Notes under the pieces: generated by a model
What the model saw: only the letters and a program-made list of their open reading frames with translations
Databases searched by the model: none
Told to the model about the DNA's origin: nothing
Shown here: piece by piece, positions 14,929 through 15,613 of the stretch
Layout: each line of letters opens with the position of its first letter
Position numbering within the stretch: position 1 is the stretch's first letter
DNA from: a virus
Lineage: Duplodnaviria; Heunggongvirae; Uroviricota; Caudoviricetes
Virus record (IMG/VR): IMGVR_UViG_2541047875_000010
Coordinates: 1-33,904 of that record
Length of the DNA: 33,904 nt
Direction: 5' to 3' (one strand)
Program-made: the position numbers and the translations under genes

Positions 14929-15243
14929 ATGACTCAAAACTATGAACTGATTGTGAAAGGGATCCGCAATTTTGAGAATAAAGTTACGGTAACTTTAGCG
15001 TTACGGGACAAAAAACGCGTTGACGGTGAAATTTTTGACCTGGACATCTCGCTGAACCGTGTTGAAGGTGCCGCGCTGGAGTTTTATGAGGCAGCAGCCA
15101 GAAGGAGCATCAGACAGGTCTTCCTGGATGTTGCTGCCGGGTTATGTGAAGGGGACGAGCTGTTGCCAGAAACGCGCCCCTGTTCAGAGGCGCGGTATAC
15201 CATAAAAATTAACAGTTCAGATAACTCGATTACTGGTTGTTAG
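14929..15243 (+). CDS. YdfR-like protein (DUF1327) inserted between holin and endolysin
   Basis: 104-aa ORF with GGGAGAG RBS immediately after the holin stop; same position and size as Qin prophage ydfR. Confidence 0.55.
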   Translation: MTQNYELIVKGIRNFENKVTVTLALRDKKRVDGEIFDLDISLNRVEGAALEFYEAAARRSIRQVFLDVAAGLCEGDELLPETRPCSEARYTIKINSSDNSITGC

Positions 15244-15479
15244 CCTTTTGTTTCAGTTGGCTTTCCAATATCTTTCATTGGTAGCAGCATTTCCAGATTG
15301 CTTTTGATATATGGATTATTTACATGTTCATTTAATTGATGAATGATTCCATTTTTTTCATTCTGGTCCAGTACGGAAAATATTACTGTAATCATATATT
15401 TAAGAGCTTCAATTTCTTTTGCTGTTGATGCAGGAGATGAGCAGTCAGCTGTAATATTGAAAAAAACTTCTTTTTGCAT
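15240..15479 (-). CDS. hypothetical AT-rich small protein (79 aa) antisense within the lysis cassette
   Basis: Minus-strand ATG 15479 with GAGGG 6 nt upstream; strongly AT-rich relative to flanks; stop overlaps the stop of the convergent YdfR-like gene; no family recognised. Confidence 0.4.
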   Translation of the reverse strand: MQKEVFFNITADCSSPASTAKEIEALKYMITVIFSVLDQNEKNGIIHQLNEHVNNPYIKSNLEMLLPMKDIGKPTETKG

Positions 15480-15613
15480 ATCAAACCCTCAGATGGGGTA
15501 GCTCAGCCAGCATCCCCCATAATCCTTAACCAGAGCGCCAGTGTCCTACCACTGACGGGCTGAATGCTTAACATATCCAGGGTTCAGAAACCGATAAATC
15601 CTGATAAATATCT

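Follow-up and report, generated by a model that had tools for sequence, protein, structure and literature searches.

The stretch of DNA analysed here, referred to below as the window, comprises the 33,904 nucleotides of the IMG/VR virus record IMGVR_UViG_2541047875_000010 (Caudoviricetes) and represents a lambdoid prophage with the order early genes, Q antiterminator, transfer RNA (tRNA), lysis genes, bor, terminase, head and tail. The subject is the interval of 685 bp that separates the genes for an S21-type pinholin and a signal-anchor-release (SAR) endolysin. It holds a ydfR gene on the late strand and, on the other strand, a putative self-contained moron cassette of about 430 bp (roughly 15168–15600, minus strand), composed of a promoter-like region, a structured leader and an open reading frame (ORF) of 79 codons. 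Judged from their sequences, the lysis genes themselves form a phage-21-type cassette, the SAR behaviour being predicted from the N-terminal segment of the endolysin; the Rz gene is the next one after it. The features of the interval and of its two borders are as follows, GC denoting guanine plus cytosine:

14709–14924, plus strand: pinholin gene S, phage-21-type, class II (PF04971, 2.2e-35; MKSM dual start in the translation)
14929–15243, plus strand: ydfR, DUF1327 (PF07041, 1.4e-37, 128.2 bits against a cut-off of 25; phrog_2735, 7e-54)
15173–15194, minus strand: putative intrinsic terminator of the antisense cassette, inside ydfR (9-bp GC-rich hairpin CGCGCCUCU-GAAC-AGGGGCGCG, then UUUCU at 15172–15168)
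15240–15479, minus strand: antisense ORF of 79 aa, Srb family (phrog_21218, 2.8e-57)
15563–15480, minus strand: structured 5' leader of 84 nt (match of the covariance model R1)
15563–15558, minus strand: UCAGCC at the 5' end of the leader (from the sequence)
15557–15536, minus strand: leader hairpin P1 (loop GUAGGA)
about 15519–15494, minus strand: leader hairpin P2 (its loop holds GGCUGA, 15508–15503, complementary to the 5' UCAGCC)
15564–15600, minus strand: promoter-like region (-10-like TATGTT, 15575–15570; weak -35-like TTATCG, 15597–15592)
15614–16147, plus strand: SAR endolysin gene R (PF00959, 1.3e-23; Gly/Ala-rich hydrophobic N-terminus in the translation)

The antisense ORF is a real, conserved protein-coding gene. 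Of the six frames, it is the only one free of internal stops, which number 3–10 in each of the others; compared with two variants 83–86% identical to it in DNA, it gives a ratio of non-synonymous to synonymous substitution rates (dN/dS) of 0.20–0.29, with a synonymous excess at p = 3e-5 to 5e-3; and an exhaustive profile search finds protein homologs of 39–54% identity in Salmonella, Klebsiella and Serratia. A lack of conservation at the protein level, which the initial annotation of this DNA—prepared without database searches—had named as evidence against the gene, is not what the other genera exhibit. In RefSeq, the Prokaryotic Genome Annotation Pipeline (PGAP) lists the ORF as the hypothetical protein WP_021549926.1. 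Several descriptive claims of the same annotation have held up: the ydfR-like gene is indeed a DUF1327 gene as in the Qin prophage (PF07041 match; ydfR of Qin); the convergent 79-aa ORF is strongly AT-rich, its GC fraction of 0.305–0.315 against about 0.5 on both flanks indicating a foreign base composition; its ribosome-binding site is good, a Shine-Dalgarno GAGGG (15490–15486) lying 6 nt ahead of the ATG; and the two genes do overlap in their stop codons, with the TAG of ydfR (15241–15243, plus) and the TAA of the ORF (15242–15240, minus) having two bases in common within TTAG, so that the coordinates overlap by 4 nt. The non-coding DNA left between the ORF and the SAR endolysin gene amounts to 134 bp. 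The orientation against late transcription was also correctly recognised, being the same in every relative examined.

The gene is at the same time rather unevenly distributed. Complete E. coli genomes contain the full ORF in 102 of 5426 cases, approximately 268 more keep just its last 47 bp after ydfR, and a frameshifted form of 48 aa is present on at least 185 contigs, one A having been lost in these variants from an A7 run (15352–15358, minus strand). This homopolymer could be a slippage-prone on/off site rather than a place of simple decay. The absence or disruption of the ORF in close relatives had been proposed as a refutation; frameshifts and deletions are common indeed, but the intact lineages are under purifying selection. 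Among cultured phages, the ORF was found in Perceval (the LF82 prophage) alone; it is unannotated there, and it is therefore missing from the LF82/Perceval RNA-seq tables.

By its sequence, the ORF belongs to the Srb moron family, of which it is a new member. The match to phrog_21218—a PHROG with function unknown—spans residues 1–79, and BLASTP of the window ORF to Srb of phage HK022 (gene 23) gives 8e-9. The family profile search collected 76 clusters, all annotated as hypothetical; an alignment of 20 sequences has almost no gaps and shows E22, K27 and L49 as invariant or almost invariant positions, and conservation extends down to about 20% identity. The AlphaFold (AF2) model built from a 73-sequence alignment has a predicted local distance difference test score (pLDDT) of 89.5, with helices predicted at residues 16–35, 39–50 and 56–68 after an extended N-terminus; neither the translation nor the model contains a signal peptide or a membrane segment. 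The profile and structure searches suggested by the initial annotation succeeded in placing both proteins in families (PF07041 and PHROG 21218) and gave no Pfam or fold match for the antisense protein: there was no family-level match in Pfam or NCBIfam, no match of either YdfR or the antisense ORF in PADLOC at E ≤ 1, and nothing in Foldseek searches of PDB and BFVD at E ≤ 0.001, either with a first model (pLDDT 63) or with the better one. Two candidates were discarded. The anti-adaptor IraP scored 13.2 bits in NCBIfam against a cut-off of 78 (E = 0.094) and E = 0.11 with the PDB profile 8gkv, with no IraP in the Foldseek results, and a match to DC-SIGNR (E = 1e-11) is an artefact, in which six weak matches to a helical repeat were summed. 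The Srb family thus emerges as a large uncharacterised group of three-helix proteins that is modelled with confidence and has no known relatives.

The most conserved part of the cassette is not the protein. Comparison of the DNA upstream of distant ORF homologs led to the detection of a non-coding leader block that is better conserved than the cargo proteins and has the consensus 5'-UCAGCC, P1 CGUCAGUG-GURGGA-CACUGRCG, variable linker, P2 loop AUGGCUGAUUA, Shine-Dalgarno and start codon, the distance from P2 to the last two being constant in almost every copy. In the window, the covariance model R1 has a sole match (59.2 bits, E = 1.4e-13; 15563–15477, minus strand); it scores 79–92 bits on phages HK022 (91.5), mEp213 and ES18, and 59–70 bits at six other loci, and in all of these, as in the window, the match falls on the strand of the ORF. 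The leader structure covaries. As counted on 68 distinct leader sequences, changes on both sides occur at 8 of 20 pairs (4 in P1, 4 in P2), and paired cells make up 93.6% overall, 98.7% in P1 and 81.8% in P2, compared with 29–46% for slid partners; on each of five measures, all 500 shuffles fall short of the observed value. A compensatory example from P1 is CAGUG/CACUG replaced by CCAUG/CAUGG or CCGUG/CACGG. Approximately 88 cells are G-U pairs, which on the other strand would be A-C mismatches, and the structured RNA is therefore read in the sense of the ORF. RNAalifold favours, in addition, a pseudoknot pairing P0 of UCAGCC with GGCUGA, both strands of which are nearly invariant; in a sample collected with a pattern for P1 only, five variants break the terminal pair of P0, and one further change is wobble-compatible. 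Rfam 15 contains nothing that matches over the window leader at E ≤ 1 or in HK022 and ES18 at E ≤ 5, and R1 finds no leader in the Qin and DLP12 prophages of K-12. A tRNA-like reading of the GGGGTAGCTCAGCC stretch was rejected, ARAGORN and Rfam giving nothing there.

The candidate signals on both sides of the leader and the ORF would suit a transcription unit of its own. In the promoter-like region, TATGTT lies 6 nt before the leader start and 16 nt from TTATCG, and the whole region overlaps, on the other strand, the DNA just upstream of the start codon of R. The 75 nt upstream of the leader are conserved too: 66 of 77 unique cassettes have a TAnnnT hexamer 6 nt ahead of UCAGCC, and about 10 more have it one base further away. 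In most cassettes, a palindrome TACTG-N9-CAGG covers the -35 region (e.g. locus L185, 2925–2990) and may be the binding site of a regulator. Its left half-site is perfectly LexA-like; a LexA box was nevertheless rejected by eye, the spacing being CTG-N9-CAG and not N10, and the consensus sequences of sigma-54 and CRP do not fit either, also by eye. The common form of the cassette has at its 5' edge a hairpin preceded by A5, i.e. a canonical terminator if read on the late strand, the stem of which, from a by-eye reading of the sequences, varies among copies with complementarity kept. The version found between S and R in E. coli keeps the -10 element and part of the palindrome and lacks the late-strand terminator, so that late transcription can continue into R. 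At the other end, the srb gene of HK022 is followed just past its stop codon by a hairpin and TTTCTTT. It may be added that ydfR alleles without a cassette (611R1 and Chlobot; loci L002 and L004) retain, near their 3' end, the GC hairpin together with the minus-strand T-rich run after it; ydfR may have come into these phages along with a cassette that they lost later.

The interval, taken in the initial annotation as one insertion of about 690 bp, is correct as to its extent; it consists, however, of two nested accessory layers—ydfR and the antisense cassette—rather than of a single insertion. The presence of ydfR between S and R is common, since 121 phage records match the region and Qin of K-12 has ydfR as well. 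An extra block of about 312 bp (15286–15597) with the antisense cassette is present in the window and in Perceval, the latter being the one matching record of the 121 that has it, and is missing from PhiR47_1, which is otherwise a near-identical S-ydfR-R phage, and from 611R1; in these two, the spacer is 55–63 bp. In the alignment, the 3' segment of ydfR differs from the alleles without a cassette from about 15181 onwards, and the last approximately 20 codons (C-terminal variant ...EARYTIKINSSDNSITGC) move together with the cassette. The L012 lineage, for example, has the cassette beside a different lysis cassette (Phage_holin_8/holin_3_7/Peptidase_M15_4), with these codons of the window-type ydfR allele carried along and fused to another gene. 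Phage Chlobot (locus L004, 1540–1927) contains at the same ydfR-R junction, with the promoter-side flank of the window (AACATATCCAGGGTTCAGAAACCGATAAATCC), a different pair of antisense ORFs of 90 aa and 29 aa; with no leader, this is a different insertion and was rejected as an instance of the same cassette. Because Chlobot holds a different antisense ORF there, the ydfR-R junction can be seen as an insertion hot spot.

Outside the S-R interval, the promoter and leader behave as a portable module. The 84 unique leaders precede ORFs that BLAST separates, over 91 non-redundant prophage contexts, into 22 distinct clusters; two of these are artefactual calls and one is a copy disrupted by an insertion sequence (IS). 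The largest cargo cluster is the Srb family with 25 members, including the window ORF; the others cover a DUF1883 protein, a protein with a retropepsin-like DTGAD motif, a four-cysteine protein with two CxxC pairs, proteins of 169 and 211 aa, and many small helical proteins. The module is almost always antisense to late or structural genes: flanking long ORFs are on the opposite strand in 289 cases vs 30 on the same strand, the opposite strand is in the majority in 84 of the 91 contexts, and all recognised late genes are on the strand opposite to the cassette. As for the sites, the cassette is positioned after the lysis genes ahead of HNH/terminase, before the terminase (Klebsiella, Serratia), between tail genes (I and J in HK022, M and L in ES18, and two copies in SPN3UB) or, as here, between ydfR and R. 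The two cassettes of the Salmonella phage SPN3UB (locus L189, 4623–5016 and 7720–8110) are located next to the tape-measure gene in one case and between gpM and gpL in the other, and each converges with and overlaps a small late-strand ORF. The leader pattern was found in genomes of Citrobacter, Klebsiella, Kluyvera and Enterobacter species and in metagenomes, in at least 119 viral contigs and 24 cultured phage genomes, and in at least 225 of the 5426 complete E. coli genomes (approximately 4%), where it is never annotated. A protein-pattern scan of the GTDB species representatives gave no match, whereas the DNA pattern scan did yield loci.

In 29 of the 91 contexts, the cargo adjoins or overlaps, at its 3' end, a small gene of the late strand. 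These partners include DUF1327/YdfR proteins (the window, ES18-like phages and locus L139), a weakly YdfR-like protein of 97 aa in Salmonella (9e-5) and a family beginning with "MTLEQRVE" that has no Pfam match, those of SPN3UB being other small ORFs; the remaining contexts have an ordinary tail, lysis or glycosyltransferase-like neighbour at least 100 nt off. A strict partnership with DUF1327 was therefore rejected, as only some cassettes abut such a gene; the pairing is recurrent, at three or more genomic sites, and not obligatory. Among the genes convergent with the cassette, the one occurring most often in the viral contigs examined encodes a conserved protein of 485 aa (MQVTIDGVP...VVIDDGS...), judged by its sequence possibly a glycosyltransferase. 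This gene lies 66–330 nt past the cargo stop in loci L064, L068, L070 and L071 and in about 20 further viral loci.

Based on the above results, it appears probable that the interval contains an antisense moron cassette with its own promoter, a structured leader and a cargo of the Srb family, which is portable, oriented against late transcription and active in the lysogen. We infer the promoter activity, the lysogen-specific expression and the roles of both the leader and the protein. In the lysogen, with the late operon silent, the sigma-70-like promoter of the cassette would drive the cargo, as is the case with bor, and the 5' hairpins would most likely stabilise the messenger RNA and/or set its translation. 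Once the prophage is induced, late transcription antiterminated by Q would cross the cassette in the antisense direction and shut it off by transcriptional interference together with duplex RNA. In the common form, the late-strand terminator at the cassette edge would insulate the downstream late genes from sense transcription that has not been antiterminated. The Srb-like protein would act in the lysogen, the best guess being host physiology or superinfection exclusion, not lysis control.

Several observations weigh against this interpretation. The promoter matches the consensus weakly (7–8 of 12 positions), below the 9 of 12 required by the scan, which did not call it; the U tract of the cassette terminator is poor and a simple scan left the hairpin uncalled. 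The cargo is often frameshifted or deleted, and because so many copies are, the cargo protein is dispensable. With respect to the leader, most copies were collected by a pattern fixing UCAGCCCG, RGCUGA and 5 of 8 P1 pairs, and the conservation of its sequence is thus overstated, three P1 pairs and all of P2 having been unconstrained; the fold of the single leader sequence is not unusually stable (z = -1.4), and the pseudoknot P0 has no compensatory changes.

The alternative that survives best, albeit as an unlikely one, is that the functional product is an RNA and not the 79-aa protein, i.e. that an antisense transcript made in the lysogen and covering the leader, the cargo region and the 3' end of ydfR acts on late messenger RNA of the resident phage or of an incoming related one, or that the leader is itself a small RNA. 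Such a reading would suit a leader and promoter more conserved than any cargo, as well as the frameshifted 48-aa copies, which are abundant (at least 185 contigs) and in which the leader is intact (63.8 bits in L012) and the downstream sequence well conserved, and it has a precedent in the antisense RNA STnc6030, which is located within late genes and gives superinfection immunity (PMC7067206). It does not, however, account for a cargo frame under purifying selection, for a protein family conserved to about 20% identity in a gap-free alignment, or for the Shine-Dalgarno and start codon at a fixed distance after P2. There is no U-rich terminator after the leader, and a stand-alone small RNA is therefore not expected; moreover, with cargo sequences so unrelated to one another, it is impossible for all of them to act in antisense on a single target.

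A role in lysis timing, raised in the initial annotation, has fared less well and is now regarded as improbable. According to it, ydfR and the antisense cassette would tune lysis, either through antagonism of the holin or endolysin by the Srb-like protein or through control of S/R by the antisense RNA. The position between S and R, the stop-to-stop overlap with ydfR and the fact that cargo relatives also adjoin other holin types would all be in line with this. Nevertheless, the same leader, as well as Srb-family cargo, is found between tail genes (HK022 gpI/gpJ, ES18 gpM/gpL and, in two copies, SPN3UB) and, in Klebsiella and Serratia, next to terminase genes, and it is the location among tail genes of other phages that makes such a role unlikely; furthermore, the cassette is oriented opposite to the lysis genes, its protein has neither a membrane segment nor a signal peptide, and many S-ydfR-R phages lack it. 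Finally, that the ORF is a product of chance or a decaying remnant in a functionless recombination mosaic—as its rarity (102 of 5426 complete E. coli genomes), its frequent deletions and frameshifts and the lack of any known domain, fold or defence-system match might suggest—is hardly credible in view of a dN/dS well below 1, a family spanning several genera, covarying RNA helices and a cassette architecture strictly conserved across hundreds of prophages.

The antisense moron cassette may be placed in a wider scheme, to which only a small probability is given here. The leader would act as a regulatory RNA, either as a pseudoknotted sensor or by binding a protein, and convey one signal to dozens of unrelated cargo genes, the abutting late-strand genes (present in about one-third of the cassettes, with DUF1327/YdfR the clearest) would be trans-acting partners, and a convergent sense/antisense switch would couple the cargo to the lysogenic or lytic state. 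YdfR is the clearest candidate for such a partner because it is reported to bind RNase E and RNA, and a functional link of YdfR to a structured antisense RNA is conceivable, if speculative.

It is mainly through morons that prophages alter the cells that harbour them. A promoter-leader module of about 150 nt ahead of some 20 unrelated cargo families, well-studied phages such as HK022, ES18 and mEp213 included, replaces what looked like an oddity of one lysis cassette by a general class. It also makes the covariance model R1 a search handle for putative lysogen-expressed accessory genes missed by annotation, and the leader a testable regulatory element in the genetically tractable phage HK022.

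Concerning the neighbourhood of the interval, a perfect GC hairpin followed by T6 (14630–14644, plus strand) is situated about 65 nt upstream of the pinholin start; it resembles a terminator on the late strand and is possibly the equivalent of tR'. Between Q and the tRNA gene, positions 13963–14165 (plus strand) give a strong Rfam match to the small RNA STnc100 (129 bits, E = 2.9e-29), which occupies the region expected for the late promoter and its short leader transcript. The tRNA gene itself (14269–14344, plus strand) has a CAT anticodon and is annotated in RefSeq, in an identical genome, as tRNA-Ile; it is followed by a degenerate tRNA-like stretch (14353–14411, plus strand; 22.7 bits, below threshold), and related phages have 2–4 tRNAs at this spot upstream of the pinholin. 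On the other side, the lysis genes are followed by a second antisense accessory gene:

16637–16921, minus strand: bor/iss lipoprotein gene (Iss of RefSeq in identical genomes; just after Rz)

Downstream of it lies a TonB-family fragment (17356–17736, plus strand), the Perceval homologue of which (LF82_160) is among the genes expressed in the LF82 lysogen (PMC9928086).

As far as known systems are concerned, the bor gene offers a parallel within the window itself, this small gene, too, running antisense to the late operon next to the lysis genes, within 1.2 kb of the cassette. It is expressed from the prophage, and Bor is a lipoprotein with a serum-resistance phenotype; unlike Bor, the Srb-like protein is predicted to be a soluble three-helix protein, and the R1 search of the window found no leader at bor. 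The put RNAs of HK022 are a cis-acting antiterminator made of two stem-loops just downstream of a promoter. The leader resembles them in having two neighbouring hairpins at the 5' end of a phage transcript, and HK022 has both elements; a put-like antiterminator was rejected, nevertheless, as all R1 matches on HK022 20000–40751 with filters off were at ≤ 8 bits and E > 1. With regard to Qin of K-12, its YdfR is 64% identical to the ydfR product of the window, and binding of this K-12 protein to the catalytic half of RNase E has been reported, as has its co-purification with RNA (PMC13232886); Qin differs in having no antisense cassette, ydfR and rrrQ overlapping there by 4 nt. The antisense RNA STnc6030, located inside the late genes of the Salmonella prophage BTP1, confers superinfection immunity (Owen et al. 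2020, PMC7067206). It shares with the cassette the antisense orientation to late genes and, being itself made in the lysogen, suggests a possible exclusion mechanism for antisense cassettes, but it is non-coding and longer than 700 nt, whereas the leader of the window is followed by a conserved ORF with a ribosome-binding site.

The closest comparison is that with the morons, the classical class of which was defined on HK97 and HK022 (Juhala et al. 2000, reviewed in PMC3594210). No description was found in the literature searched of a structured leader common to unrelated morons, of the rule of antisense orientation or of the breadth of the cargo, nor did the leader sequence occur in any paper searched, and the shared leader and antisense expression module thus appear to be undescribed. 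Like the morons, the cassette is an additional piece of DNA that separates two genes found side by side in relatives, and its base composition is atypical; candidate promoter-like and terminator-like signals may extend the resemblance. In HK022, the leader precedes gene 23 "srb", annotated in the record as "moron gene product" and located between the tail genes I and J; the cassette of the window differs from it in residing inside the lysis cassette and not in the tail operon, and the E. coli version also differs in having no late-strand terminator and a longer P1–P2 linker and P2 loop. In ES18, the leader precedes gp25, a "possible moron" convergent with gp24, which is a DUF1327 protein, the annotated terminator of each of the two genes lying beyond or inside the other.

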